64,000 nucleotides of DNA from assembly GCA_017621695.1 (NCBI GenBank), contig JAGASP010000127.1, forward strand, positions 2,681-66,680, written 5' to 3'. Numbering within the stretch: the first letter of the stretch is position 1; every line of letters begins with the position of its first letter. Under the pieces are notes generated by a model. The model saw only the letters and a program-made list of their open reading frames with translations. It was not told the DNA's origin and ran no database searches. This stretch comes from Clostridia bacterium. GTDB lineage: Bacteria; Bacillota; Clostridia; Oscillospirales; CAG-272. A program made the translations under genes and the position numbers. Positions 4,612 to 63,951 of this stretch are shown piece by piece.

Positions 4612-6093
4612 ATGAGTACCGCCAACAAAAAAAATGACGGCTTTGGCCGTTTCAAAAAGAAACTGCGAAGGAATGCATGGATCAAGAGCCTGCTTTTCGG
4701 TGTTTCTTGCGGTCTGCTGGCCGCGGCAGGCATCATCATCTATCAAAAGATGACAACCGTTTCACCACAACTTCTCCTGTATTTGCCCATCGGCGCGGGA
4801 GTTGCCCTCTTTACGGGACTATTGGCGTTCCTTGTCCTGCGCCCTTCCATCAAAAAGATCGCGCGCAGACTGGATGACGAGTTGATGCTCGGAGAAAAGG
4901 TGCAGACCATGCTGGAGTATCAGGACAGTCAAGAGGATATGCTGGTTTTGCAGCGAGAGGATGCCAATGAAAAGCTGATGAATAAGCCCCTGCGCTCCGT
5001 GCGGGACAGATATTTCTGGCTTTCTGTGATTTTGCCTGTGCTGGCCTGTGTATGTATCACAACGGCGGTGATCCTTCCTGTCAAAGCAGTAGAGCCTCCT
5101 CCGCCCGTCGAGGAAGAACCCGAAACGCCGTTTGAGCTCTCTTCCTGGCAGGAATCCGCTCTGTTGGAGCTGATCGAGCAGGTCAAGAGCTCCGACATGG
5201 AAGCCGCTCCCAAGGCAGCAACCGTTGCCGAGCTGGAAGGACTTCTGGAGACCTTGCGCGTGACAACCGTCGAAAAAGAGATGAAATCCCATGTCATTGA
5301 CACCATTCGCGTGCTCAATCAGATCATACGGGATCACAACTCTGCGGTCATGTTTTATAAATATTTGGCTGTTTCCGAATACGAGCCCGTGAAGGGAATT
5401 GCCATGTCGATGGATATGATCAGCGGTCTTGAAGCAAAGGAAGCCTTGAATCATGCCCGAGAGACTCTCCGTGTTGACGACATCAACGCGCCCATGACAG
5501 CCTTTATTTCGGCGGTCAGCGAAGCGCTCGCCATAATTCAGGAGGAAGGTCTGTCTAAGGAAGAGCCCATTTATCGGGCGTTCCTCACCCTGACGGCACA
5601 GCTCGCCGACATCGGAGCACAGGCCGACGATTATACCCGCGATTGGGTACAGGCGCGTTTTGATGAAGCCTTTGCGGAGGCCTCCGATGAAATCAGCGAT
5701 GCGCTCTATGTCCAACATATCAACCGTGAGGTAAAAAATACCACGGTGAAGCGCCTGATGGAAATTTTCGGCATCTCCGAGGATGAGCTTCCCCGTGAGG
5801 AGCAGGTACAGCTTCCCTCGGGTGATGACGAGCCGGATGATGAAGAGGGCGACGAGGAGGACAAAGGTAGCGAAGGCGGTATCGGCAACATGGAAGTGCT
5901 GTACGGTAGCGACGACGTGATCTATGATCCCGTACAAAATACATACGTCAAATACGGTGATGTCATCAATGGCTACTACGCCGCTGTTTCCGAAAAGATT
6001 CTGGTCGGAAAGATTCCCGACACTCTGCAGGAGTATATAACAAATTATTTCGATACCCTCTACGACGGCTCGGAAAAAGAGACCGAATCGTAA
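4612..6093 (+). CDS. Membrane protein with long acidic helical ectodomain (first gene of the MoxR/vWA operon)
   Basis: 493-aa ORF with SD AAGAAAGAGG upstream. TM helices at WIKSLLFGVSCGLLAAAGIIIY, LLLYLPIGAGVALFTGLLAFLVL and YFWLSVILPVLACVCITTAVILPV. An acidic helical region follows, ending ...IPDTLQEYITNYFDTLYDG. I recognised no catalytic motif. Confidence 0.7.
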   Translation: MSTANKKNDGFGRFKKKLRRNAWIKSLLFGVSCGLLAAAGIIIYQKMTTVSPQLLLYLPIGAGVALFTGLLAFLVLRPSIKKIARRLDDELMLGEKVQTMLEYQDSQEDMLVLQREDANEKLMNKPLRSVRDRYFWLSVILPVLACVCITTAVILPVKAVEPPPPVEEEPETPFELSSWQESALLELIEQVKSSDMEAAPKAATVAELEGLLETLRVTTVEKEMKSHVIDTIRVLNQIIRDHNSAVMFYKYLAVSEYEPVKGIAMSMDMISGLEAKEALNHARETLRVDDINAPMTAFISAVSEALAIIQEEGLSKEEPIYRAFLTLTAQLADIGAQADDYTRDWVQARFDEAFAEASDEISDALYVQHINREVKNTTVKRLMEIFGISEDELPREEQVQLPSGDDEPDDEEGDEEDKGSEGGIGNMEVLYGSDDVIYDPVQNTYVKYGDVINGYYAAVSEKILVGKIPDTLQEYITNYFDTLYDGSEKETES

Positions 6094-6156: not shown

Positions 6157-7140
6157 ATGGAAAACATCGAAAAGGTAAAGAATTTCAGCCAAGTCGTCTC
6201 TAACATCAAGACCGAGCTCCGCCGTGACGTCGTCGGTCAGGAAGACATCGTGGATAACGTCATCATCGCCATCATTGCAGGAGGTAACGTCCTGCTCGAG
6301 GGCGTACCCGGTGTCGGTAAGACCCGTCTTGTCCGTTCTCTCAGCCACGTTTTGAACCTCCCCTTCTCCCGTATTCAGTTCACTCCCGACCTGATGCCCT
6401 CCGACGTAACGGGTAGCAACGTCATCGTCCGTGACGAGAACGGTAACATGAAGAGCGAATTCCGCAAGGGCCCGATCTTTGCAAACCTTGTGCTCGCCGA
6501 TGAGATCAACCGTGCAACCCCTAAGACCCAGTCCGCAATGCTGGAGGTCATGCAGGAGCATAAGATCACCGTGGGTAATGAAACATACGCTCTTGCTGAG
6601 CCCTTCTTCGTGCTGGCTACCGAGAACCCCATCGAGCAGGACGGTACCTACCCTCTGCCCGAAGCACAGATGGACCGCTTCATCTTCAAGCTCATCATGA
6701 AATTCCCCGGCAACGACGAGCTGGCTGATATCGTTAAGATGACCCAGATCACCATGGCAGAGACTGCCGGAACTGTCGTTGACGGTGCTACCATTCTGGA
6801 GATGCGTGCCCTTGCTTCCTCTGTTCCCGTGATCGACGAGGTCTTGGATTACGCTGTCCGTCTGGTTTCCGGTACGCATCCCGAGCTGGACAAGACCTCC
6901 GATACCGCCAAGAAGTACATCAAATACGGTGCATCTCCCCGTGCTGCCCAGGCACTCATCACCTGTGCCAAGGTTCGCGCTCTCATCAACGGTAATTTCA
7001 ACGTCTCTTACGCAGATGTCGAAGCACTGGCATATCCCGTTCTTCGTCACAGAATCAAGGTCAGCTATGCCGCCATCAACGAGCATCTGTCTGTAGATGA
7101 CGTGATCGGTATGCTCATCAAGGAAACCAAGAAAAAGTAA
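6157..7140 (+). CDS. moxR: MoxR-family AAA+ ATPase
   Basis: VVGQEDIVDNVIIAIIAGGNVLLEGVPGVGKT (Walker A), LVLADEINRATPKTQSAMLEVMQE (Walker B/sensor), and the overall AAA_3/MoxR layout. ATG 6157 lies 10 nt after GAGGAAGGA. The in-frame upstream ATG 6136 (track start) has no SD, so either start is possible. Confidence 0.93.
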   Translation: MENIEKVKNFSQVVSNIKTELRRDVVGQEDIVDNVIIAIIAGGNVLLEGVPGVGKTRLVRSLSHVLNLPFSRIQFTPDLMPSDVTGSNVIVRDENGNMKSEFRKGPIFANLVLADEINRATPKTQSAMLEVMQEHKITVGNETYALAEPFFVLATENPIEQDGTYPLPEAQMDRFIFKLIMKFPGNDELADIVKMTQITMAETAGTVVDGATILEMRALASSVPVIDEVLDYAVRLVSGTHPELDKTSDTAKKYIKYGASPRAAQALITCAKVRALINGNFNVSYADVEALAYPVLRHRIKVSYAAINEHLSVDDVIGMLIKETKKK

Positions 7141-54596: not shown

Positions 54597-54651
54597 TGAC
54601 ACGTAGTCACAATGTATTGTACCGTCGCATGACGGTGGAATGGAGATGAAA

Positions 54652-57042
54652 ATGATGAAAAAATTGCTTTGCGGCATCCTGCTCGCCTTCTTGCTCCTGT
54701 CTGTCGCAGCTTGTACGAACAATTCGGGAGACGCCGAAACCGACATGGGTACAGCTACCTCTGCGCCCCAATCTGCAACCGAAGCTCCCACCGAGGAGAG
54801 CGACGAATTCCAAATCGAGACAGAGGCTGATACTTATGTGGAAACCGAGACCGAAACCGAAACCGAGACGGAGACCGATCTTGAAACCGAACCCGAGACC
54901 GAGCCTCCCATTGCGATTGAGGTTCCTGCTTACAAGGATATCGGACTGACTGCTCTCATGGCAGGCACGGATGATCGACTGAACCTCAACTATCATTTTG
55001 CTGATTACACCTACAGCCAGCTCCGCAGTGATAATGCGCTTGTCTTTACTTCTAACAAGGATTATGTGGTAGATAAGGACGGGCTTACGCTCACGACCGA
55101 CGGCTGGAACAGCGTAGGCTTTGCGCATACACTGACAAAAGCGTATACCGCGAAGGCATCCATCGTCAATCGCGGCGGAGTGAGCGACGTTCGCACCATA
55201 ATGATGGGATGCCGTATTACAAGGTCCGATCATCTTTACATAGATAGTGGCCTTTGGTTCACCTTTTCCGGCAATTCAGTATACGCCCACGTCAAGAATG
55301 GCTTTACCAAATTGATTCGAAATGATTATACCTTCAATGCTAAGGACGGCTTGAACGTTACCATCAAGGATGACGGTACCACCATCGAATGCTATGTCAA
55401 CGGCGCTCTCATTGCCACGGCTGTGGTGGAAGGGGATACCCTCGCTGTATACGGTACCAATGGTACGGAGATCGCCCGCACCTCCGATCTGGCTCGTATC
55501 GCCCACGGAGATACCTTGGGATATGTCCGTACCATGTCTCACTTTGCAGATTCCACGACCAAGGCTATGAGTTTGGAAACGGGTGTAATCATTCCGTATG
55601 CAACAGATGACATTTGCGCAGAACTGAAGGATGGCTATGCATACTTCCTGTGTGATAAGACGCAGATCAAGGCCAAATACCCCATCACGCTCCACGAGGG
55701 CGTAACCCTCATGGACGCAAAGGCTGCCGCTACACTCTTTGGCTATCAATGTGTGATCTCCGAGGACGGTACCACGGCCACCCTCACCCGTGACGGAGCT
55801 ACCTTGACCTACACCGTGGGTTCGCCTAAGGTCGATCTCAATGGGAAATCCTACGATTGCCCCACAACTGTTTCCCGTGGCGATACCATCCTGATCTCTG
55901 CTGACTATCTGGCTCGTTGGATGGGATATACCGTAACATCCGCCGACACCTCGGTTTATGTGACCACCTCGGCCGCCGCCCTCACTGAGGAGCGCAAACA
56001 GGCCATGACCGAGCGGTATCAGCTCTATAAGGACGTCATCTACAACTACGACGACGTGGAGATCGAGCAGATCGGCGTGGGCAAGTACGAGACTACGCCC
56101 TACGAAGACCGCCTGGTGGGCATCGCTTACTCTACCTGGCTCTGCACCAAGATCATCACCTGGGGCAAGAACACCTGGGATACACCCCTGTATGGCAACT
56201 ACTATTCCGACGACCGCGAGATGATCGCCAAGCACGCCGAGCTGCTCCGCGACGCGGGTGTGGACTTCGTCTTCGTGGACTGGACCAACAATACCGGTTA
56301 TGACCCTGCCACTATGAGTGACTCCCGCTCTGATTTCCGCATGATCGAGGAAGCTACCGAGTTGCTCTTTGAGATCTGGTCCCAGATCGAGGGTGCTCCC
56401 AAGATCTGCATCTTCGCGGGCCCCGGCCACTCGGGCATCGAGAACGTCAACAACGGTAAGCACCAGAAGAAGGTGGATCAGATCTATTCTTCCTTCGTGG
56501 AGAAGTACCCCGATATGTACTTCCAGTATGAAGGAAAGCCCCTGCTCATGTGCTATGGGGCCACACCCAACCAGTACGGCGCCCGCCCCAGATGGAAGGA
56601 TGACCGCTTCACCATCCGCTGGGTCACGGGCTATGTTGGCCAGCAGGGTGATCTGCACAGCGATAAGGATATGTCCAGCCGCTCCCGCTGGTGGAGCTGG
56701 GAGGAGAGAGGGCTTCAGGCCTATTCCATTTCGGACGGTCGGGTGGAGTGTGTTACCTGCACCGCCGCCTCGCGCGCCCAGGGCAAGGAGGGTGAGTCCG
56801 GTTACATCCCCGCCTATGGTAGAGAGAACGGTTTGACCCTAAAAAAACAGTTCCAGCGAGCCAACGATTTGGGAGCAGGCATGGTCATCCTTGTCTCATG
56901 GAACGAGTGGACCACAGGCGAACAGCCCTCCCCCGAAATCTCCAAGGATCTGGAGCCCTCGGTGATCCACGGCACCTTCTACTACGACCTGCTGTGCGAG
57001 CAGATCAAGAAGTTCAAGGGGCAGATCCAAATCGAGGATTGA
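54652..57042 (+). CDS. Surface lipoprotein: beta-rich N-domain, copper-amine-oxidase-N-like stalk, C-terminal WNEW-type TIM-barrel-like domain
   Basis: Four clustered ATGs (54640-54655). ATG 54652 lies 6 nt after GGAG. Lipobox LLLSVAAC. (ET)n linker. Stalk-like GVTLMDAKAAATLFGYQCVISEDGTTATLTRDGATLTYTVGSPKVDLNGKSYDC...ISADYLARWMGYTV. Barrel-like VGIAYSTW...AELLRDAGVDFVFVDWTNNTGYDP...KICIFAGPGHS...VSWNEWTTGEQ. Confidence 0.75.
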   Translation: MMKKLLCGILLAFLLLSVAACTNNSGDAETDMGTATSAPQSATEAPTEESDEFQIETEADTYVETETETETETETDLETEPETEPPIAIEVPAYKDIGLTALMAGTDDRLNLNYHFADYTYSQLRSDNALVFTSNKDYVVDKDGLTLTTDGWNSVGFAHTLTKAYTAKASIVNRGGVSDVRTIMMGCRITRSDHLYIDSGLWFTFSGNSVYAHVKNGFTKLIRNDYTFNAKDGLNVTIKDDGTTIECYVNGALIATAVVEGDTLAVYGTNGTEIARTSDLARIAHGDTLGYVRTMSHFADSTTKAMSLETGVIIPYATDDICAELKDGYAYFLCDKTQIKAKYPITLHEGVTLMDAKAAATLFGYQCVISEDGTTATLTRDGATLTYTVGSPKVDLNGKSYDCPTTVSRGDTILISADYLARWMGYTVTSADTSVYVTTSAAALTEERKQAMTERYQLYKDVIYNYDDVEIEQIGVGKYETTPYEDRLVGIAYSTWLCTKIITWGKNTWDTPLYGNYYSDDREMIAKHAELLRDAGVDFVFVDWTNNTGYDPATMSDSRSDFRMIEEATELLFEIWSQIEGAPKICIFAGPGHSGIENVNNGKHQKKVDQIYSSFVEKYPDMYFQYEGKPLLMCYGATPNQYGARPRWKDDRFTIRWVTGYVGQQGDLHSDKDMSSRSRWWSWEERGLQAYSISDGRVECVTCTAASRAQGKEGESGYIPAYGRENGLTLKKQFQRANDLGAGMVILVSWNEWTTGEQPSPEISKDLEPSVIHGTFYYDLLCEQIKKFKGQIQIED

Positions 57043-57059
57043 TTCGGCCACGGGCTTGG

Positions 57060-57189
57060 AAGATACCAAGATACACGCCGAGCAAGCTCGGCCGATACAA
57101 GATACACGCCGAGCAAGCTCGGCCGATACAAGATAACCTCCCCGTTTCCATCTCGTATCTTGTATCTCGTATCTTGTATCTCATATCTC
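57060..57189 (+). repeat. Composite intergenic repeat: 31-nt unit x2.2 with GC hairpins, followed by inverted heptamer repeats
   Basis: CAAGATACACGCCGAGCAAGCTCGGCCGATA occurs at 57067-57097 and 57098-57128, each with GCCGAG-CAAG-CTCGGC. The left arm repeats AAGATAC. TCGTATCTTGTATC x2 (57153-57180) plus TCATATCTC is its reverse complement. Confidence 0.85.
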
Positions 57190-57234
57190 ACACCTGCACT
57201 CAATATTTCTCATTCCAAATACGGAGGAACCACC

Positions 57235-58221
57235 ATGTCAAACCGTTACGCATCCGTCCTGCCCATCGGCGTAGGACTCTACGACAAAACCCCGGCGGCT
57301 GACCGCAAGGTTGGCATCGCCTACACCACCTGGAACACCGCTACTCATCCCCGTTGGGGGACCGGGACTTGGGATCTCCCTATGGATGGCCCCTACATCT
57401 CCGAGGATCCCGCCATCATCCGTAAGCACGGCATCCTGCTCCGTGACGCAGGCATCGACTTTGTCTTCGTTGACTGGACCAACAACACCTGCTACGATCC
57501 CGCGACCCAAAGAGACAAGCTGGAGACCTTCCGCATGATCGAGGAGGCTACCGATGTGCTGTTTGAGGAGTGGTCCCGTCTGGAGGGCGCGCCCAAGATC
57601 TGCATATTCGCAGGCCCAGGCCACAGTATGCCCGAGAATCTGGAGAACGGCAACCACCAGAAGAAGGTGGATCAGATCTGGCGAGACTACGCCTCCAAGT
57701 ACCCCGAGCTCTACTATCAGTACGACGGCAAGCCACTGCTCATGTGCTACGGTGCCACCCCCAACTTCTACGGCGCGGATCCCGTCTGGACCGACGACCG
57801 CTTCACGGTTCGCTGGGTCACGGGTTACGTAGGCCAGCAGGAGGGTCTGTATGATCCTGAGACCATGCGCTCCTACCACTTCTGGAGCTGGGAGGAGCGA
57901 GGCACCCAGACCTATACCGTCAAAGAGGGAAGGGTAGAGTGCATCTCGGTCACCGCCTCCAGTCGCGCTCAGGGCAAGGAAGGAACTCGTGGCTACATCC
58001 CTGCGAGAGGTCGACGGAACGGCGAGACCTTCCGTGAGCAGTTCGGTCGAGCCACCCAACTGGGCGCGGGTATGGTGCTTCTGATTTCCTGGAACGAGTG
58101 GACTACGGGCGAACAACTCTCGTTGGAGATTTCCAAGGATCTGGAGCCCTCCCAAACCTTGGGTACCTTCTACTACGACCTCATGAAGGAGCAGATCAAA
58201 CTGTATAAGACGCTTGAGTGA
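57235..58221 (+). CDS. Cytoplasmic stand-alone WNEW-type TIM-barrel-like protein, paralog of the C-terminal domain of the upstream lipoprotein
   Basis: Start moved to ATG 57235 (ACGGAGGA upstream; MSNRYASVLPIG). No signal peptide. It is collinear with 56110-57042 (VGIAYTTW, LLRDAGIDFVFVDWTNNTCYDPAT, KICIFAGPGHS, GKPLLMCYGATPN, DDRFTVRWVTGYVGQQ, ISWNEWTTGEQ), and roughly two-thirds of positions are identical by eye. Confidence 0.8.
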   Translation: MSNRYASVLPIGVGLYDKTPAADRKVGIAYTTWNTATHPRWGTGTWDLPMDGPYISEDPAIIRKHGILLRDAGIDFVFVDWTNNTCYDPATQRDKLETFRMIEEATDVLFEEWSRLEGAPKICIFAGPGHSMPENLENGNHQKKVDQIWRDYASKYPELYYQYDGKPLLMCYGATPNFYGADPVWTDDRFTVRWVTGYVGQQEGLYDPETMRSYHFWSWEERGTQTYTVKEGRVECISVTASSRAQGKEGTRGYIPARGRRNGETFREQFGRATQLGAGMVLLISWNEWTTGEQLSLEISKDLEPSQTLGTFYYDLMKEQIKLYKTLE

Positions 58222-58262
58222 TCCAACCGGGGGCGAAGGAGTTAAAAATAAGCTATTTTCGC

Positions 58263-58310
58263 AAAAAACAAAATTCCATAGTCGAAATTGTATCGACTAT
58301 GGAATTTTTT
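58263..58310. terminator. Bidirectional terminator hairpin
   Basis: AAAATTCCATAGTCGA (58270-58285), loop aattgta, TCGACTATGGAATTTT (58293-58308): a 16-bp stem with an A-run before and a T-run after. It lies between convergent genes. Confidence 0.8.
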
Positions 58311-58334
58311 GTGCTGTGCTTCCGAAATAGATGC

Positions 58335-58784
58335 CTATTGCTCAAGGATTCTTCTTACACATTCTATCAATTCATTTTCTTCCTTGATTTTTGACATAAA
58401 TAATACAGCGCACACAACGGAAATTAAGATAAATGCCAGTATATCTTGAACAAAAATAATTTCTAACAAGCCATTCAACAAACCGATTATCAATAAAGGG
58501 CAGTAATATGTATATCCTTTGACAATGCGTTTCCCGTTTTTCTCTTTTATTTTAATGTGCATCCAAGCTTTCGCTCTCTGCAAATCGTCTTGTCTGTTAC
58601 GTTCTCCAGTTTCGTAATAACCGGTAAAACCATTTTCATCGGGATATAGATGCAAACCTTTTCTAGGAGAGGTGTATTCCTTAAATATATTCCACGAAGA
58701 ATGCTTTTCCCATTCATAATAAGATGACATGCGGTGTTGGATCTCGTCACTAGTCAAATAAGTTTCAAATTCAAAAAAGCGCAT
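58335..58784 (-). CDS. Small membrane protein, function unknown
   Basis: 149-aa ORF in the AT-richer segment. C-terminal TM helices (YYCPLLIIGLLNGLLEIIFV, ILAFILISVVCAVLFM). It is preceded by regulatory module copy 1. Confidence 0.6.
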   Translation of the reverse strand: MRFFEFETYLTSDEIQHRMSSYYEWEKHSSWNIFKEYTSPRKGLHLYPDENGFTGYYETGERNRQDDLQRAKAWMHIKIKEKNGKRIVKGYTYYCPLLIIGLLNGLLEIIFVQDILAFILISVVCAVLFMSKIKEENELIECVRRILEQ

Positions 58785-58883
58785 TTGTTCACCGCCTTTT
58801 TTTATGCATGTGCGTATTTCTGTCCTCGGTTGGAGGATTATAGAGGAAGTAAATTTTACATCTGAGCAATGTTAATTTTACTT

Positions 58884-59023
58884 GATAATATGGTTTTAAG
58901 TCTATCATTTCCGCGCTCCTTTCGGGTGGTAATACAGATTGTACCGAAAGTTTGCGAGGAGTCCAGAGGTTTTGGAAAATTATTTGTTGAAATAATTATA
59001 TCACAAATTCCATGCTTTGTCAA
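58884..59023 (-). promoter_or_regulatory. Promoter-operator-leader module, copy 1
   Basis: Minus strand reads TTGACA (59023-59018), a 17-nt spacer, then a TG-extended TATAAT (59000-58995). An 18-bp palindrome ATTATTTGTTGAAATAAT (58979-58996) overlaps the -10/start region. About 95 nt of conserved leader (58884-58978) is shared with 61489-61580. Confidence 0.7.
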
Positions 59024-59190
59024 TGAAGCATTCGCTACGCGAATATGAAGCAGAAGCCTTGCGGCTTCTGTGAAGCGGCGGCGTTGCCGTCATGAAGCGA
59101 AGCGCACGCTAACCTCTCCGTGAGCCGAAGGCTCGCTTCACAGGACGAAGTCCTGCTTCATTTTTCATGCACCATCGGTGCGCTTCATTG
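59021..59190. repeat. Hairpin-ladder array 1 (three nested 9-bp helices built from ATGAAGC/GCTTCAT arms, with six side hairpins)
   Basis: Helices: 59021-59029/59182-59190, 59045-59053/59153-59161 and 59069-59077/59134-59142. Side hairpins: ATTCGC-tac-GCGAAT, AAGCC-ttgc-GGCTT, GGCGGC-gtt-GCCGTC, GAGCC-gaa-GGCTC, GGAC-gaa-GTCC and GCACC-atc-GGTGC. Confidence 0.8.
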
Positions 59191-59195
59191 CAACC

Positions 59196-59235
59196 AAAAA
59201 CGAAAAAGCAGTCCATTGGACTGCTTTCGTTTTTG
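59196..59235. terminator. Bidirectional terminator hairpin
   Basis: GCAGTCC (59208-59214), loop att, GGACTGC (59218-59224), extended by CGAAA/TTTCG, with an A-run before and a T-run after. It lies downstream (minus sense) of gene 59314-61410. Confidence 0.75.
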
Positions 59236-59313
59236 TGTTGCACTATCTAAATAGATGCCGAACTGAAAAGTCAATAAAATCAGGTGGCGAGTTCGGTCAA
59301 TTCAAAGCTTCGC

Positions 59314-61410
59314 CTAAACAGATTCTTTTTCCTTTTCTGTAAAGACCTCAACTATGTAGTTACAGTTTATTATCTTTTCAGCAAGCTGCCCCTTGGAATA
59401 ATAATAGTGGTTTGCCGCTTCATATCCGATTGCCGCGTTTTTGTTCATCAGCGCTAACATTCTTTTTGCGGTGAGCAATTCTTCCTTTGCGGCAAAGACG
59501 GCATCTGAATAGAACCCTTCGTCTCTGGCGCGAATAAATCTGATTTGATTCAAAGAAGATTTAAAAAGGCAATAGGTTGCTCTTGCCATAATAGCGGTCT
59601 CACTTTCATCTTCTTCATCCAGCATATCCAAGCCGATCTCCCATTTTTTACATAGCTTTGAAAATTGCTCCTCAAAGGTGTTAAGCGGATATATCGACCT
59701 CCAGCCTTTAAGATCATCATAGGCAAAGCAGGTCATAGATGTTTTGTATCCCGTCGGCTTTTCAAACAGAAGATTAGAGGGACCCGCATTTTGCGGCCCG
59801 AAATAGAGAACATCGATATGGAACGGAAACTCTCTGAATGCCTCAACGAATTGCTTTTCCGCTTCATATGGCGCAGGGCCTTTGGATTGATCACTACATT
59901 CTTCGTAAAAATATTTTGCCGCAGCGGCAATATTACGGCAGGGATATCCTCCAAGCGTCCAACTGAGCAAAAGATGCTGAACCCCCTCCTCTTGCAACGT
60001 TTTAATATGCTTCTCTATGGAGGGGCGTACAGGAATAGCCGGAACAGTTGATGCTTCCCACGTGGTGTTTATCTGCACCTTTGCGCCGACCTCCAAGCCG
60101 CGATCCTTTGCCAGCTTCCATTCGCGGCGCGCACGTTCTCCCGGTCCGACAATGCTCATAGAATAGTCCAGGACATTACCCTTAATTCCGCTTATATCAA
60201 ACGGAATATCCAATTCGCTCTGTGATAAAAGTATAATGTCTTTGGGAAGACGTCGTATGATATCTTCGTTGAACTCATCCCATCTCCAGCTCCACGCAAA
60301 CACCTTGATATCCCGGCTTACGCGGTACGCTCCATTTAAGATGCAATCGATTGTTTCGGCAACAACCTCGCCAACACCTCGGTTTTTGCATCTGGGACAG
60401 TTGCAGGGATTCCAAGCGAAACCCGAATGTGAGTAGCAATTTGTCAGATTTTCAGATCTTGTTATAGTAAAAAAGCCGCCGATCAAGGGCACAGCGCGGC
60501 ATATTGACTCCACAGCATCCGTAAGATAATCGCGCACTTGAGGCGTTGAGATGCAAAGGCAGGCGTCTTCACCCTGCACGTGACCGCGCAGTTCAGAGTG
60601 CTTTTCAAAGAAGGAAAGAGGCATTGAGCGTGGCTCGTTGAGATAAAGATAAAGCTTGATACCGTAGCGAGCAAGGCGCTCGGTCATCGCTATCATCTTT
60701 TCAATGCGCTTTTCATATCCTACTGAAACGCTAGGATCAAACGGAAAGGGGGTAAGCTGCGAGAGCACGCCCTGTGTCCAGATACCATTTATGCCAAGCG
60801 CCTGATACGCCTTTAGCTGCTCATCGGGCAAAAATTCTTCGCTATCGACGTCGAATGCGTGCTGATATAATCCGGAAAACGCATAGATCATTCGTGTGGA
60901 AAAGCGTTCCTTGCCGGTAAATTGCAGTTTTGGAACATCATATTCAAATGCAAACGGTTGCTTGCCGGAAAAATCGAGCGATTGCATCAGCTTTTGAATT
61001 TGGCGAGTCCTTATTCTTTCTTCTTCAGTAAGCTCACGCCACGAAATTCTTTCACAGTATGGCTTATCCGATAGCTTGACATCGAGAAAATCATCCTCAC
61101 GCATAATACGCGCAAGCGTCTGTTCATCCATATCCAGCAGCTCTAATAACTGCTCGTACGGCAAAATGTGCCACATTCTGCGAATGATCGTAATATAACC
61201 GCGTCGGAGCCACAAATCACCGGGATTGTAGTCCGGCAATCCCATCTCATCGGCGGCGCGTCTTACCGTGTTAACGTCCGTCCTCAAGAGGTTTGCTATT
61301 CTTTCTATCGGTACGTATTCGTACGCACGAAAAATAAATGCTTGGTGCTTTGTCGGAAAATGCAACAAATCCAGCGCATTATTTCCTACCGGCGGCAATG
61401 AATAAATCAT
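59314..61410 (-). CDS. 698-aa cytoplasmic protein, putative clan GH-A-like glycoside hydrolase
   Basis: SD GGAGGA. Central barrel-like region GINGIWTQGVLSQLTPFPFDP...YGIKLYLYLNEPRSMP (NEP-type motif) and FFTITRSENLTNCYSH...CNCPRC. No signal peptide. The family was not identified. Confidence 0.6.
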   Translation of the reverse strand: MIYSLPPVGNNALDLLHFPTKHQAFIFRAYEYVPIERIANLLRTDVNTVRRAADEMGLPDYNPGDLWLRRGYITIIRRMWHILPYEQLLELLDMDEQTLARIMREDDFLDVKLSDKPYCERISWRELTEEERIRTRQIQKLMQSLDFSGKQPFAFEYDVPKLQFTGKERFSTRMIYAFSGLYQHAFDVDSEEFLPDEQLKAYQALGINGIWTQGVLSQLTPFPFDPSVSVGYEKRIEKMIAMTERLARYGIKLYLYLNEPRSMPLSFFEKHSELRGHVQGEDACLCISTPQVRDYLTDAVESICRAVPLIGGFFTITRSENLTNCYSHSGFAWNPCNCPRCKNRGVGEVVAETIDCILNGAYRVSRDIKVFAWSWRWDEFNEDIIRRLPKDIILLSQSELDIPFDISGIKGNVLDYSMSIVGPGERARREWKLAKDRGLEVGAKVQINTTWEASTVPAIPVRPSIEKHIKTLQEEGVQHLLLSWTLGGYPCRNIAAAAKYFYEECSDQSKGPAPYEAEKQFVEAFREFPFHIDVLYFGPQNAGPSNLLFEKPTGYKTSMTCFAYDDLKGWRSIYPLNTFEEQFSKLCKKWEIGLDMLDEEDESETAIMARATYCLFKSSLNQIRFIRARDEGFYSDAVFAAKEELLTAKRMLALMNKNAAIGYEAANHYYYSKGQLAEKIINCNYIVEVFTEKEKESV

Positions 61411-61488
61411 AATATTCCTCCATTTTTACAAAGTCAATGCTTGGTTATGGTTTTATCACAATACAAACAAAAAAACAAAAACGAATTA

Positions 61489-61625
61489 GATAATATGGCT
61501 TCAGGTCTATCATTTTCACTCTCCTTTCGGGTGGTAATACCATTATACCGAAAGACTCGGGAAAGTCCAGGGGTTTTATGATTATTTGTTGAAATAATTA
61601 TATCATACTTTCGACTAAAAATCAA
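61489..61625 (-). promoter_or_regulatory. Promoter-operator-leader module, copy 2
   Basis: Minus strand reads TTGATT (61625-61620), a 17-nt spacer, then a TG-extended TATAAT (61602-61597). The same palindrome ATTATTTGTTGAAATAAT lies at 61581-61598. The conserved leader at 61489-61580 is about 80% identical to copy 1 by eye. Confidence 0.7.
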
Positions 61626-61634
61626 CTATAATTT

Positions 61635-61826
61635 CAGCGCACTGAGCGAACGGCTCAATTCCGTTTGCGCGAAGCGCAACATCGTTGGGCGTAGCCCGCA
61701 TCATTTGCCGAAGGCAACTTCATTTGAGGCAATGCCTCAACATCGTTCATTTGTGCCACGAGCGGCAATGATGTTCTCGCTTTGCTCGAAATGATGTTGC
61801 GTGCGTTGCACGCAACTGATGTTGTA
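61635..61826. repeat. Hairpin-ladder array 2 (nested helices built from AACATCRTT/AAYGATGTT arms, with side hairpins)
   Basis: Left arms at 61678-61686, 61698-61706 and 61739-61747. Right arms at 61767-61775, 61790-61798 and 61814-61823. Side hairpins: AACGG-ctcaatt-CCGTT, TTGCGC-gaa-GCGCAA, GGGC-gta-GCCC, TTGCC-gaa-GGCAA, TTGAGGC-aat-GCCTCAA and GTTGCGTGC-gtt-GCACGCAAC. Confidence 0.8.
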
Positions 61827-61912
61827 GTTATTATATCACACCATTTCCGTCATGTCAAGGTGCTTCCATTTTTGAAGAGACCGAATAATTTCAAAAATAT
61901 TTGCAAAAACTA

Positions 61913-61941
61913 TTGACAAAAGCCAAATGATATGGTATAAT
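61913..61941 (+). promoter_or_regulatory. Consensus sigma-A promoter of the tRNA pair
   Basis: TTGACA (61913-61918), a 17-nt spacer, then TATAAT (61936-61941). Confidence 0.75.
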
Positions 61942-61988
61942 AACAAAGTCATCGGGACAGTAAAGCCTCGGTAACAGTTTGAAGTTCT

Positions 61989-62077
61989 GCCGGTGTGGCG
62001 GAATTGGCAGACGCCCGGGACTTAAAATCCCGTGATACGAGAGTATCGTACCGGTTCGAGACCGGTCACCGGCACCA
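61989..62077 (+). tRNA. tRNA-Leu (anticodon UAA), class II with long variable arm, CCA encoded
   Basis: Acceptor GCCGGTG/CACCGGC. Anticodon stem-loop CGGGA-CTTAAAA-TCCCG. Variable arm GATAC-gaga-GTATC. T-arm ACCGG-TTCGAGA-CCGGT. 3' ACCA. Confidence 0.92.
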
Positions 62078-62094
62078 CACCAAATTTCATATAT

Positions 62095-62171
<77 letters not shown>

Positions 62172-62237: not shown

Positions 62238-62326
62238 GTACCCATTTTTCATAGTGCGATTTTAATAGATGCCAAACGCCAAAAACGCCGTGTGGATGGG
62301 ATTTGAACTTAAATAATCCACTTTTT

Positions 62327-62556: not shown

Positions 62557-62835
62557 ATGAGCATCCAAGAAGTAAATCGTATCAAAAATCACTACCCTCC
62601 CGGAACTCGTATCGAGCTCATAGCGATGAACGATCCCTACGATCCCGTGCCATCAGGCACAAGAGGAACAGTCGAGCATGTTGACGATGACGGTCAACTG
62701 CATATGAAATGGGATAACGGTCGTACACTTGCCGCCGTTCCCGGCGTGGATAGTTTCCGCAAACTCACTCCCGAAGAAATCCAAGCTGAAAGTCATACGG
62801 AAGATATATCCGAAGACAATCCTATCAGCATGTAA
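62557..62835 (+). CDS. DUF4314-like small protein
   Basis: SD GAAAGGAGA. YPPGTRIELIAMNDPYDPVPSGTRGTVEHVDDDGQLHMKWDNGRTLAAVPGVDSFRKL matches my recollection of the DUF4314 pattern common in Firmicutes mobile elements. Confidence 0.55.
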   Translation: MSIQEVNRIKNHYPPGTRIELIAMNDPYDPVPSGTRGTVEHVDDDGQLHMKWDNGRTLAAVPGVDSFRKLTPEEIQAESHTEDISEDNPISM

Positions 62836-62868
62836 GGGGGTGGGATCATAACAATTAAATATATTGAC

Positions 62869-63951
62869 ATGTTCGCCGGCATTGGTGGATTCCGCACAGG
62901 ACTCGCTAATGTCGGCGATTTTTTTGTCCCCGTAGGTTTCTGTGAAATAGATAAATACGCACAGAGAGCCTACCGCGCATTATACAGAACAGGAGGTGAA
63001 TATTTCTGCGATGATGCCACACGAATTAACACCGATGAACTACCCGACATTGATCTCATTTGCGCAGGATTTCCTTGTCAGCCTTTCTCAGTCAGCGGAC
63101 GGCGACTTGGCTTTGCCGACACCCGAGGAACTCTCTTTCATGAAATCACAAGGGTGGCTGAAGCCAAACGGCCTAAGTATCTTCTCCTTGAAAACGTGCC
63201 GGGGATTCTCAATCACTCCCACGGGCAAACTTGGAGAACTATCCTCTATGAGATTTCAAAACTCGGGTATTGTGTTCAATATGGTGTGCTTAACTCAGCG
63301 TATTTCGGAGTCCCACAGCAACGAAAGCGCGTGTACGCTTTCGGATATCTTGATCCAAGACTGTCCGGAAAAATACTTCCTATCGGAGAAGGCAGTGCGG
63401 AAACTCTTAAACAACTCGTCGCAGGCAGCCAAGGTTGCCGAATCTACGGAATTGACGGAGTCAGCACCTGCATCACATCCCAAGGAGGTGGCTGGGGAGC
63501 CAAAACAGGACTCTACTTTGTTGACATGAATCCAAACCCCATGGTAACGCATCACGCAAGATGTATCACCGCAAGACAGGACTCGGGCATCAGCAAACAC
63601 AGAGGCGAGCACTCGGGCGTTATCATAACTGATGCAAGAGCTGTTATTACTCCCTTCAGGGAAAACATAAGGCAGCAAGGAAGGCGAATTAAGGAGCCTA
63701 ACGAGCCGATGTTCACTCTCACGGCACAAGACCGCATGGGAGTCGAGTACAACGGCTTGGTGCGCCGTTTAACGCCTCTTGAATGCTTCCGCTTACAAGG
63801 ATATTCTGACGAGCAATTCAATACGCTCGTAGATATCGGAATTCCCGAAAGTCAGTTATACAAGATGGCTGGTAATTCTGTAACCACCAATGTTGTAACG
63901 GCAATCGGCAACAGACTAATTCAAGTATTAAAGGAGATCGAAAATGGTTAA
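62869..63951 (+). CDS. dcm: DNA (cytosine-5)-methyltransferase
   Basis: Motif I (D)MFAGIGGF, motif IV GFPCQPFS, motif VI LLENVPG, motif VIII QQRKRVY and motif X GNSV. The open frame extends upstream to 62836 with no canonical start (see findings). Confidence 0.9.
   Translation: MFAGIGGFRTGLANVGDFFVPVGFCEIDKYAQRAYRALYRTGGEYFCDDATRINTDELPDIDLICAGFPCQPFSVSGRRLGFADTRGTLFHEITRVAEAKRPKYLLLENVPGILNHSHGQTWRTILYEISKLGYCVQYGVLNSAYFGVPQQRKRVYAFGYLDPRLSGKILPIGEGSAETLKQLVAGSQGCRIYGIDGVSTCITSQGGGWGAKTGLYFVDMNPNPMVTHHARCITARQDSGISKHRGEHSGVIITDARAVITPFRENIRQQGRRIKEPNEPMFTLTAQDRMGVEYNGLVRRLTPLECFRLQGYSDEQFNTLVDIGIPESQLYKMAGNSVTTNVVTAIGNRLIQVLKEIENG

Follow-up and report, generated by a model that had tools for sequence, protein, structure and literature searches.

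Two repeated promoter and leader stretches in a Clostridia contig are front ends of a multi-copy cassette family with a candidate promoter nested in a fold-back stem

The window analyzed here, a stretch of 64,000 nucleotides from a Clostridia bacterium (contig JAGASP010000127.1), harbors an A+T-rich segment in which two look-alike stretches, copy A (58884-59023) and copy B (61489-61625), lie 2.6 kb apart on the minus strand. A first-pass annotation, made from the letters alone, had described them as a promoter-operator-leader module, about 80% identical by eye, placed before two unrelated genes. The duplication is real: both copies lie where they had been placed, global alignment yields 110 identical positions out of 140 (78.6%), and the downstream genes are indeed unrelated. 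Two exact words, the 20-mer GTATTACCACCCGAAAGGAG and the 18-mer ATTATTTCAACAAATAAT, are found at two places each and nowhere else in the 64 kb, where chance predicts 0.00 and 0.01 occurrences, respectively, and an HMM derived from 33 relatives matches only copies A and B in the window (E ~2e-17).

Copy A precedes a gene for a 149-aa protein (58335-58784, minus strand) that shows a C-terminal membrane segment and no family match. Copy B precedes a gene for a 698-aa protein (59314-61410, minus strand), a member of a large conserved "hypothetical protein" family of Oscillospiraceae and Clostridia (2,697 clusters), with no match in Pfam, NCBIfam or the PDB. Both genes are followed on the same strand by a common 3' module, located at 58270-58335 beyond the 149-aa gene (GGCATCTATTT at 58325-58335 and a terminator at 58270-58308) and at 59204-59259 beyond the 698-aa gene (GGCATCTATTT at 59249-59259, then an intrinsic terminator at 59204-59228), which is also present in the related loci L005, L006 and L008.

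Each copy begins with a near-consensus, TG-extended sigma-70 promoter, TTGACA or TTGATT placed 17 nt from TATAAT, as the annotation had described. P1-A (58995-59023, minus strand) reads TTGACA-17-TGATATAAT and matches the consensus at 12/12 positions, and P1-B (61597-61625, minus strand) reads TTGATT-17-TGATATAAT and matches at 10/12. An inverted repeat, ATTATTT-CAAC-AAATAAT, follows in copy A (58979-58996, minus strand) and in copy B (61581-61598, minus strand). Previously taken for an 18-bp palindrome, it does overlap the -10 box and presumed start site in both copies, but its symmetry is limited to 7-nt A/T arms around a non-symmetric 4-nt CAAC.

The gaps upstream of both promoters are filled with short hairpins. 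Array A (59024-59193, minus strand) consists of three hairpins with UGAAGC-type linkers and then three with complementary GCUUCAY linkers, the last of which abuts the -35 box of P1-A; its RNA fold reaches -78.3 kcal/mol (z = -4.4). Array B (61626-61829, minus strand) contains about eight short G+C hairpins with differing stems, reaches the -35 box of P1-B, and carries ACATCAT-type linkers in its first half and complementary AATGATG-type linkers in its second (-72.5 kcal/mol, z = -2.8). A further promoter reads into array B (61830-61858, minus strand; TTGACA-17-TGnTATAAT, 12/12 consensus match), and nearly repeats, in inverted orientation, the tRNA promoter at 61913-61941 on the plus strand (repeat I1, 41 nt, 71% complementary).

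Concerning the extent of the similarity, it goes past the leader, through GGAG and into ATG ATA GAC YTR AAR CCA TAT TAT, an ORF start that reads MIDLKPYY in both copies with synonymous differences; hence, the last ~25 nt of each copy are coding. Upstream it stops at the -10 region, since the promoter spacers and the hairpin arrays differ, and downstream it stops at codon 8. Neither terminal inverted repeats, nor target duplications, nor uniform flank similarity were found at the two copies, so that the simple duplication or MITE named beforehand as a refutation does not describe them: the similarity does not run on into the flanks. What the earlier description as a "leader" omits is the small ORF to which the module belongs, of which both window copies hold remnants.

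MIDLKPYY is the start of a family of 73-aa helical-hairpin proteins (MIDLKPYYQVKL...) comprising about 1,800 protein clusters, 1,288 in one subfamily and 518 in a second, with no Pfam match. Some 53 codons of the gene are conserved and the C-terminus beyond them varies, and a 19-mer scan retrieved eight Clostridia MAG loci, in five of which the ORF runs to 67-73 codons. In most relatives the leader is preceded by a gene for a four-helix-bundle protein (IVP), a member of TIGR02436/PF05635 with 97-100 bits against a cut-off of 24, and more than 30 loci show the succession IVP, small gene, cargo. In relatives, a complete unit runs from a terminator through a short-hairpin array and a sigma-70-type P1 to the IVP gene, and then through a ~75-nt leader, the 73-aa gene and a variable cargo gene to the GGCATCTATTT-terminator end. 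Copies A and B are the front ends (promoter, leader and first codons) of this undescribed, multi-copy cassette family of uncultured gut Clostridia/Oscillospiraceae.

Judged by their sequence, both window units are decayed, having lost the IVP gene as well as a working small gene. Remnant A (58789-58908, minus strand; 39 codons) shows a 108-nt internal deletion and small indels relative to the intact 73-codon genes, and remnant B (61445-61513, minus strand; MIDLKPYYLIRFCFFVCIVIKP and a stop) is homologous to the 73-aa family in its first 8 codons only. The DNA of the 149-aa cargo gene is nearly identical, by eye, to that found downstream of the intact small genes of L018 and L037 (whole-alignment column identity 90%). 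Copy B was cut after codon 8 and fused ahead of a host gene, with a junction identical to that in L009. The 698-aa gene itself does not belong to the cassette cargo; in a distant genome (L055) an ordinary promoter precedes it and the module is absent. Both remnant ORFs are probably inert, and the module in the window would mainly supply transcription, since the downstream genes have their own Shine-Dalgarno (SD) sequences.

The inverted repeat at P1 finds its place in the same comparison. In relatives, the IVP gene stands between its two halves: the left arm matches the start of the IVP 5' UTR (TATAAT-GATTTCAA) and the right arm the stop region at the 3' end of the gene (AACAAATAAT). P1-B is likewise a promoter of the type found before the four-helix-bundle gene in relatives such as L022, whose IVP promoter matches it in spacer and -10 box. 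Of the TIGR02436/PF05635 gene itself, only the promoter, 5' UTR start and stop region remain in the window. Given that its halves flank the gene in relatives, the repeat probably marks the deletion junction left by IVP gene loss. It is intact in about 9 of 25-28 distinct family copies (about a third), the arm mutations in L021 and L006 are single and without compensation, and no regulator gene was found adjacent to the units in the window. The single repressor site put forward in the first-pass annotation is thus not supported.

The leader core, on the other hand, is under strong selection. Among 15 loci with an intact small gene, nucleotide diversity is ~0-0.05 in the two conserved blocks of the leader versus 0.32 at the third codon positions of the gene next to it. 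All 33 distinct copies, which come from many samples, have the core, and it is also retained in the second small-protein subfamily, at ~40% protein identity by reading of the sequences. The claim of a constrained element up to the start codon, beyond chance or a neutral repeat, therefore holds.

Within the core lies a promoter-like element, TGGACT-16-TATAAT in copy B (61542-61569, minus strand; 10/12 sigma-70 consensus match) and TGGACT-16-TACAAT in copy A (58938-58965, minus strand; 9/12). The 16-nt distance shows zero indels in all 33 distinct copies, though 8-9 nt between the boxes vary, whereas indels are tolerated elsewhere in the leader, namely in the loop, which spans 17-21 nt, and between SD and AUG. 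The -10 variants (TACAAT and TATCAT) change only the two least critical positions. From consensus match, spacing and variant pattern we infer that the element is a candidate internal promoter. Its -35 box is non-consensus yet almost invariant (TCTGGACTT), a pattern that would suit recognition by a specific factor better than by sigma-A alone.

The arms CTTTCGG and CCGAAAG, reported earlier as an RNA helix, were found in both copies and delimit a fold-back stem at 58919-58950 in copy A (minus strand; CTTTCGG 58944-58950, CCGAAAG 58919-58925, GGAG 58916-58919) and at 61524-61554 in copy B (minus strand; CTTTCGG 61548-61554, CCGAAAG 61524-61530, GGAG 61521-61524). CTTTCGG sits just upstream of the internal -10 box, TATAAT lying directly 3' of the 5' arm with the -35-like block and the 16-nt spacing conserved, while CCGAAAG overlaps the SD sequence AAAGGAG. 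The eight core pairs form in 88-100% of the 33 distinct copies, among which one pair changes on both sides, in a single event; 85 of 500 shuffles reached the observed covariation score of 0.088 (shuffles, 0.083), and the outer pairing of the leader shows no co-variation (p = 0.51). Several single arm changes still allow a wobble pair (in L010 and L016 C>U facing G, in L037 C>U), and about half of the independent arm variants disrupt pairing (L011, L041 and the second copies of L018 and L005). Predicted stability is modest, with z = -2.4 for copy A and 0.03 for copy B. The ACA/UGU to AUA/UAU change formerly read as compensatory involves a 1-nt indel and falls on the TATAAT-like hexamer (TACAAT vs TATAAT); the helix is conserved without significant covariation, and the case for a structured RNA made on that ground is not supported. 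A loop of variable length is more in line with a hairpin than with a two-half-site DNA operator of fixed spacing. At Rfam 15 gathering scores only two tRNAs pass and neither leader does; even at E <= 10 nothing credible covers either leader (rli28, 23 bits, E = 7.3), in agreement with the statement that no known riboswitch class matches.

Taken at the level of sequence, the leader looks most like a promoter nested in an SD-hiding stem. In such an arrangement P1 would fire constitutively, and the conserved core would be a second, internal promoter (TGGACT-16 nt-TATAAT) nested within the stem. Upstream transcripts, whether from P1, the IVP gene or read-through, would carry both CUUUCGG and CCGAAAG, so that the stem would mask the small gene's ribosome-binding site; those started at the internal promoter would be without the 5' arm and leave the small gene translatable. 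In units without an IVP gene, as both are here, a strong P1 would mostly make masked transcript, which looks wasteful. As a whole explanation, front-end identity together with an internal promoter nested in an SD-occluding fold-back stem has, in our judgment, about an even chance of being right. It should also be noted that the leader contains a conserved 18-nt loop, UAUAAUGUGURUUACCAC, whose conservation beyond the -10 hexamer is outside what a nested promoter accounts for.

Fold-back inhibition of translation from outside transcripts is known for the transposase genes of IS10 and IS50. The left end of IS200 combines a terminator with an SD-sequestering stem in the 5' UTR (PMC4513863). The cassette units resemble these elements in having an inverted repeat whose 3' arm covers the SD sequence (CUUUCGG/CCGAAAG over AAAGGAG), a resident promoter, here predicted from sequence, positioned such that the 5' arm would be missing from the RNA it makes, and a terminator with further structure upstream that shield the unit from outside transcription. 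In contrast to them, no transposase and no terminal inverted repeats flank the units, the protected gene encodes a 73-aa protein, and many copies have their own strong consensus promoter upstream of the stem. Lacking transposase and terminal repeats, the units are related to IS10, IS50 and IS200 by analogy of mechanism and not by membership. A second parallel is found in the Borrelia erp, mlp and bdr paralogous families, whose upstream homology boxes are shared promoter/5' UTR blocks. There, as here, genes of one genome that are otherwise unrelated share almost the same promoter, 5' UTR and first codons, but the window block goes with one particular small gene that is truncated or missing in the window, and the units are bounded by hairpin arrays and a 3' module. 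As for the IVP gene, TIGR02436/PF05635 is the 23S rRNA intervening-sequence protein family, which includes Avd of diversity-generating retroelements; neither a reverse transcriptase nor an rRNA context was found near the cassette four-helix-bundle genes in the loci examined.

Several other explanations were weighed against the nested promoter. The model of the first-pass annotation has a single repressor binding the inverted repeat as its operator, and both genes co-regulated through a riboswitch-like leader RNA whose structure senses a ligand or signal. It draws on the identical 18-mers over the -10 box and start site of both copies, on the conserved helix overlapping the SD sequence and on the strong purifying selection on the leader. 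We consider it very unlikely: about two thirds of distinct copies lack the dyad, which the four-helix-bundle gene splits in relatives, its mutated arms in L021 and L006 are uncompensated, no regulator gene is adjacent, the Rfam search was negative at E <= 10, the 33 copies show no significant covariation, and the claimed compensatory pair is a TATAAT box with an indel. In addition, the gene after the leader is always the same 73-aa gene, and no metabolic or transport theme unites the cargo genes, orphans unrelated to one another, which makes a riboswitch-like reading unlikely. A translational operator without internal promoter, its conserved 18-21-nt loop read by the 73-aa or the four-helix-bundle protein so as to autoregulate the small gene and a coupled cargo, would account for a loop that is near-invariant beyond the needs of a -10 box and for a stem covering the SD sequence; coupling is suggested by the overlap or direct contact of the small gene with the cargo gene. 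Four-helix-bundle relatives such as Avd bind nucleic acids, which also speaks in its favor. It leaves unexplained, however, the invariant TCTGGACTT block and the fixed 16 nt to TATAAT, given that indels are tolerated elsewhere, and the small protein has no recognisable nucleic-acid-binding fold (the AF2 model is a plain two-helix hairpin, and Foldseek against the PDB returned nothing below E = 1), so that we regard it as possible but rather unlikely.

Conservation could also reflect gene conversion and not regulation, the module being chiefly a recombination handle or site at which cargo is shuffled between cassettes, through homologous or site-specific exchange in the constant 5' region and the arrays. 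The same leader module occurs before many unrelated genes and the same cargo after different promoter types, the breakpoints are discrete (codons 4-8 or ~53), deletion of the four-helix-bundle ORF took place between two GAAAAAYCNNTGGAYTTT copies, most contigs with the 73-aa family are short, as repeats would give, and the loci cluster beside tRNA-Leu/tRNA-Met. Gene conversion would homogenise synonymous sites too, yet these vary at least six-fold more than the leader core; moreover, the core is kept between subfamilies with diverged coding DNA, and no recombinase linked to the units was found in the loci examined. As a substitute for regulation such a handle is improbable, although it can coexist with the nested promoter. 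A neutral recent duplication or MITE-like repeat without function of its own, finally, would agree with two copies 2.6 kb apart in an A+T-rich segment and with both small ORFs being broken; given that the flanks are dissimilar (spacers and arrays differ, and the match breaks off at codon 8), that terminal inverted repeats and target duplications are lacking, that the leader is far more conserved than synonymous sites in the 15 loci, and that its core is found in all 33 distinct copies, we give this reading hardly any credence.

The arrays themselves recall the Gut-1 RNA motif (RF01706), put forward as a stand-alone non-coding RNA (Weinberg et al. 2010, PMC2864571). The Gut-1 model scores 30.4 bits at 59110-59190, below its gathering score of 50, a threshold reached in none of 16 related loci. 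The layout is nonetheless Gut-1-like: short hairpins with unrelated stems alternate with a constant linker of the (A/G)UGAAnn type, and stems covary between loci while the linkers, which are purine-rich, remain constant, as in the seed alignment. The Gut-1 seed sequences also follow a terminator (one of them after a tRNA), have a second half with complementary linkers, and run on to a promoter-like TTTACA...TGATATATT. They differ in the linker words, GAAGC or ATGATG in the window arrays and GAAAU or GAUAU in Gut-1, and, unlike a free-standing RNA, the window arrays fill the normally untranscribed gap from terminator to -35 box. That the units form an undescribed, self-insulated cassette system of gut Oscillospiraceae, accumulating near tRNA-Leu/tRNA-Met, with cargo exchange at the 5' module, four-helix-bundle gain and loss between repeats, and Gut-1-like arrays acting as DNA-level boundary, insulator or recombination elements, is a speculative proposal to which we attach a low probability.

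For the window, the outcome is mostly a clarification: rather than a new riboswitch or regulon, the repeat represents two worn family front ends, one of which, that of copy B, now drives a conserved 698-aa host gene. Beyond it, the ~1,800 clusters of 73-aa proteins carry no annotation, their genes are tied in most relatives to a four-helix-bundle gene, and an intergenic core of 50-60 nt is held far more tightly than the surrounding genes. The flanking arrays give the orphan Gut-1 motif a genomic context. If the nested promoter and fold-back are true, the IS-type insulation from outside transcription would extend to non-transposase cassettes of gut Firmicutes.

The two look-alike copies at 58884-59023 (copy A) and 61489-61625 (copy B), both on the minus strand, are real. 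They align with 110 of 140 positions identical (78.6%), the 64 kb holds exactly two occurrences of the conserved 20-mer and two of the 18-mer inverted repeat where about zero are expected, and a profile built from 33 relatives returns these two sites as its sole matches in the window. The consensus promoters proposed by the first-pass annotation are also found in their places by hexamer match: the upstream sigma-70-type promoter (P1) matches the consensus as TTGACA-17-TGATATAAT at 59023-58995 in copy A and as TTGATT-17-TGATATAAT at 61625-61597 in copy B, both on the minus strand. The likeness extends from the -10 region to 24 nt inside an open reading frame, the P1 spacers and all sequence further upstream being unlike between the copies. 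On the 3' side of AAAGGAG both copies read ATG ATA GAC YTR AAR CCA TAT TAT (MIDLKPYY), and the differences between them within these codons are synonymous. These are the first codons of a gene for a 73-aa helical-hairpin protein (hereafter the small gene), which in copy A, aligned with the intact genes of two related loci from other genomes (L018 and L037), shows a 108-nt internal deletion and small indels that leave 39 codons, while copy B keeps 8 family codons, then diverges and reaches a stop after 22 codons. We consider it very probable that both copies are front ends, now decayed, of a cassette family not described before.

The genes that follow the two copies have different histories. 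The 149-aa gene after copy A is nearly identical to the gene 3' of the intact small gene in L018 and L037, and its protein was assigned to no family by Pfam, PHROGs, NCBIfam, PADLOC and PDB sequence searches. The copy B junction is also present in L009, ahead of the same 698-aa gene. A less closely related genome has this gene under an ordinary promoter and without the module, hence copy B is read as a family front end that landed before a host gene. The 698-aa protein is a member of a conserved family from Ruminococcaceae/Oscillospiraceae that is large (at least 2,697 clusters), is annotated as "hypothetical" and has no Pfam, NCBIfam or PDB match. A single sub-threshold Xre-like HTH match was all that Pfam, PHROGs, NCBIfam, PADLOC and PDB sequence searches gave, so that its earlier description as a putative hydrolase is unsupported.

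Scanning a genome collection with the 19-mer core gave eight loci in Clostridia/Oscillospiraceae/Eubacteriales MAGs, in five of which the ORF extends to 67-73 codons, and one further match, in a Pyrinomonadaceae MAG (L004), that falls inside a coding region and was dismissed as chance. The metagenome scan by protein pattern contributed 8 loci only, most loci coming from exact-protein look-ups. The small protein consists of MIDLKPYYQVKLALLTYKASFSRNPPKTEDEKYAYDIIQKAYWINEKKIEMLD followed by a variable tail of ~20 residues, and forms 1,288 clusters at 90% identity. No family was found for it in Pfam, PHROG, NCBIfam or PADLOC, nor by PDB sequence search. AlphaFold2 predicts a confident two-helix hairpin (pLDDT 93), for which Foldseek against the PDB gave generic helical hairpins only (E > 1) and no informative neighbour. 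A profile search of 1.84 billion representatives recovered only 74 relatives, which makes the family a narrow one; among them is a second subfamily, MEYELKHYYRVKY...NPPKDD..., with 518 clusters, more distant subfamilies such as MEYTLKHYYQVKV... also exist, and the family total is roughly 1,800 clusters. One representative of 2,175 residues (P0156) matches the profile in 19 separate stretches, and may be either a true repeat protein or an ORF called wrongly across tandem copies. BLAST against phages and plasmids and a scan of viral contigs found no module copy in those collections, and thus nothing to indicate that a known phage or plasmid carries the module.

Exact-protein look-ups yielded more than 50 loci, in which a four-helix-bundle gene (IVP; TIGR02436 match at 97-100 bits, PF05635) usually lies 72-76 nt upstream of the small gene, and a variable, mostly orphan cargo gene overlaps or abuts the small-gene 3' end. 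One cargo protein of 202 aa (L022, 5210-5818) weakly resembles AbiGi, which is part of an abortive-infection system (E = 1.7e-4); the remaining cargo proteins tested matched no defence system. Conservation of the small protein extends through residue 53 and gives way to variation beyond it, both in the protein alignment and in loci L018, L037, L002, L003, L022 and L027. In the small number of cases observed, tail type tracks the downstream cargo gene, hence the exchange point seemingly lies inside the small gene.

Four types of sequence context precede the leader: P1, the inverted repeat and the leader, as in both window copies; a different promoter with a partial repeat; the promoter, RBS and initial 12 codons of IVP joined to the leader at GAAAAAYCNNTGGAYTTT; and an intact IVP gene whose stop codon the leader follows immediately. 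The third is an IVP ORF deleted between two GAAAAAYCNNTGGAYTTT copies. This word occurs at IVP codons 6-12 and again at the leader start (L022 4575-4600 and 4920-4945; L005 460-490; L018 4660-4690; L038), and in several loci the IVP gene is lost exactly between its two copies.

The same gene bears on the 18-bp palindrome of the window copies, which had been taken for a repressor operator. It reads ATTATTT-CAAC-AAATAAT, with 7-nt arms made of A/T. Its left arm matches the start of the IVP 5' UTR (TATAAT-GATTTCAA) and its right arm the IVP stop region (AACAAATAAT), and the P1-B spacer and -10 box match the IVP promoter of L022. Since the arms correspond to the two ends of IVP, the repeat is best read, from these matches, as the junction left where IVP is absent. 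An operator finds no support: besides having halves that match the IVP ends, the repeat is lacking in roughly two thirds of the distinct copies, and the arm changes seen in L021 and L006 are not compensated.

Over 15 loci whose small gene is intact, third codon positions show a pairwise diversity of 0.32 vs about 0-0.05 in two leader blocks, AAAACCTCTGGACTT and CTTTCGGTATAATGTGTRTTACCACCCGAAAGGAGCG, and leader variation is limited to the 8-nt stretch between the blocks and to the SD-AUG spacer. The second subfamily, with only about 40% protein identity as read from the sequences by eye, keeps ATCTGGACTT, 8 nt, CCTTTCGGTATAATGGTGTT..CC..AACCGAAAGGA at the same place. Judged by such conservation, the leader is functional.

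A riboswitch has no evidence in its favour, Rfam giving nothing for the leader in the region or the whole window, either at the gathering score or at E <= 10. RNAalifold recovers the helix CUUUCGG/CCGAAAG described earlier, and its 8 core stem pairs are paired in 88-100% of 33 distinct copies. The compensatory change from ACA/UGU to AUA/UAU claimed within it is actually TACAAT vs TATAAT plus a 1-nt indel. Two-sided change affects one pair only, as a single event (L027 and L028), and independent single arm changes are about half wobble-compatible and half disruptive. The covariation score over the 33 distinct copies, 0.088 vs 0.083 in shuffles and reached by 85 of 500, is not significant, in arms too conserved to give the additional copies much power. 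Formally, this is the outcome that the first-pass annotation had named as refuting its reading. Single-sequence folding is uninformative (z = -2.4 for copy A, 0.03 for copy B). Folding predicts an outer helix joining the two variable blocks in almost all copies, but this was rejected as evidence because native and chimeric sequences score alike (-16.02 vs -16.03 kcal/mol, p = 0.51). Two points favour a hairpin over a double-stranded operator of two half-sites: the distance between the arms varies from 17 to 21 nt, and the 3' arm covers the SD sequence in every case.

Within the leader lies an internal promoter-like sequence, TGGACT-16 nt-TATAAT, that agrees with the consensus at 9/12 positions for copy A and at 10/12 for copy B. 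The interval between its hexamers has no indel in any of the 33 distinct copies, though mostly variable in sequence, and indels are present in the loop and in the SD-AUG spacer. All six -10 variants (TACAAT, TATCAT) are confined to positions three and four, with T1, A2 and T6 left unchanged. Fixed spacing and this variant pattern are the sequence signature of a sigma-70-type promoter. Reading TGGACT as a sigma-54 or sporulation-sigma element was discarded by eye, as spacing and hexamers are unfit. The 5' arm of the stem is just upstream of the internal -10 box. Transcripts from the internal promoter would accordingly be without the 5' arm, while those arriving from P1, the IVP gene or read-through would contain both arms and have the SD sequence masked. 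We tentatively regard this nested promoter with fold-back SD masking as the most likely mechanism; it does not account for the -35 block, which is invariant and departs from the consensus, or for the loop conserved on the 3' side of the -10 box. Fold-back logic of this sort makes IS10 and IS50 insensitive to transcription from outside. A stem whose 3' arm covers the SD sequence is what the leader shares with these elements. IS200 likewise joins a left-end terminator to an SD-sequestering stem (PMC4513863). The proposed mechanism is of a known kind in a new setting.

Upstream of each copy 6-8 short hairpins form an array in which the stems are unrelated and the linkers constant. The linkers of the second half complement those of the first, being UGAAGC and then GCUUCAY in array A (59024-59193), and ACAUCAU and then AAUGAUG in array B (61626-61829). 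Both arrays stop exactly at the -35 box. Folding z-scores are -4.4 (A), -2.8 (B) and -5.6 (a relative), and the stems covary between loci, e.g. ATTCGC/GCGAAT vs GTTTGC/GCAAAC. Array A matches Gut-1 below threshold (30.4 bits vs 50), and the Gut-1 seed alignment has the same layout of terminator, two-half array and promoter. In architecture the arrays thus equal this orphan RNA motif, while scoring under its Rfam threshold. Further arrays lie upstream of promoters in L022 (3100-3296), L003, L008, L016 and L037, and the arrays occupy the gap from terminator to -35 box. This normally untranscribed position argues for a DNA-level or insulator role.

A conserved GGCATCTATTT-terminator module closes the cassettes (58325-58335, 59249-59259). 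At 58325-58335, 59249-59259 and 62263-62273, as well as in L005, L006 and L008, a GGCATCTATT(T) word is followed after ~20 nt by ACAACACAAAAACG and then by an intrinsic terminator, and the terminator stem (AAAGCAGTCC...GGACTGCTTT) is itself conserved between loci; together they make up a 3' module conserved among cassettes. Of the window copies, the third (62263-62273) comes behind the tRNA terminator and is oriented against the neighbouring genes.

The tRNA-Leu/tRNA-Met pair at 61989-62171 is found beside units in eight relatives as tRNA-Leu(taa)/tRNA-Met(cat) (L002, L003, L005, L009, L022, L032, L036, L037). L009 has a duplication of the last 21 nt of tRNA-Met (6245-6265 and 6010-6030), as at an integration site; in the window the tRNA-Met 3' end occurs once, with no duplicate. 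The promoter into array B (61818-61858, minus strand) is an inverted near-copy of the tRNA promoter (61913-61953, plus strand), 71% complementary over 41 nt, and tRNAs and cassettes are co-oriented in L009, L003 and L022 and divergent in the window, which suggests an inversion with an end-point in the promoter. Downstream of tRNA-Met, a DUF4314 protein and a C-5 cytosine DNA methylase (62557-63951) are probably the edge of an integrated mobile element. On the other side, 54640-58221 holds two G+C-rich (55-60%) genes with weak GH99-like matches, one with a copper amine oxidase N-terminal-like domain, and G+C falls to ~35-45% from about 58240 to 62000.

The original interpretation is supported in part. 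Nothing speaks for its repressor site or for a riboswitch, and the covariation claim fails; the promoters are real by consensus, and the leader element is functional and uncatalogued. The interest of these copies is moderate for the window itself, and higher for the cassette family and the Gut-1-like arrays.
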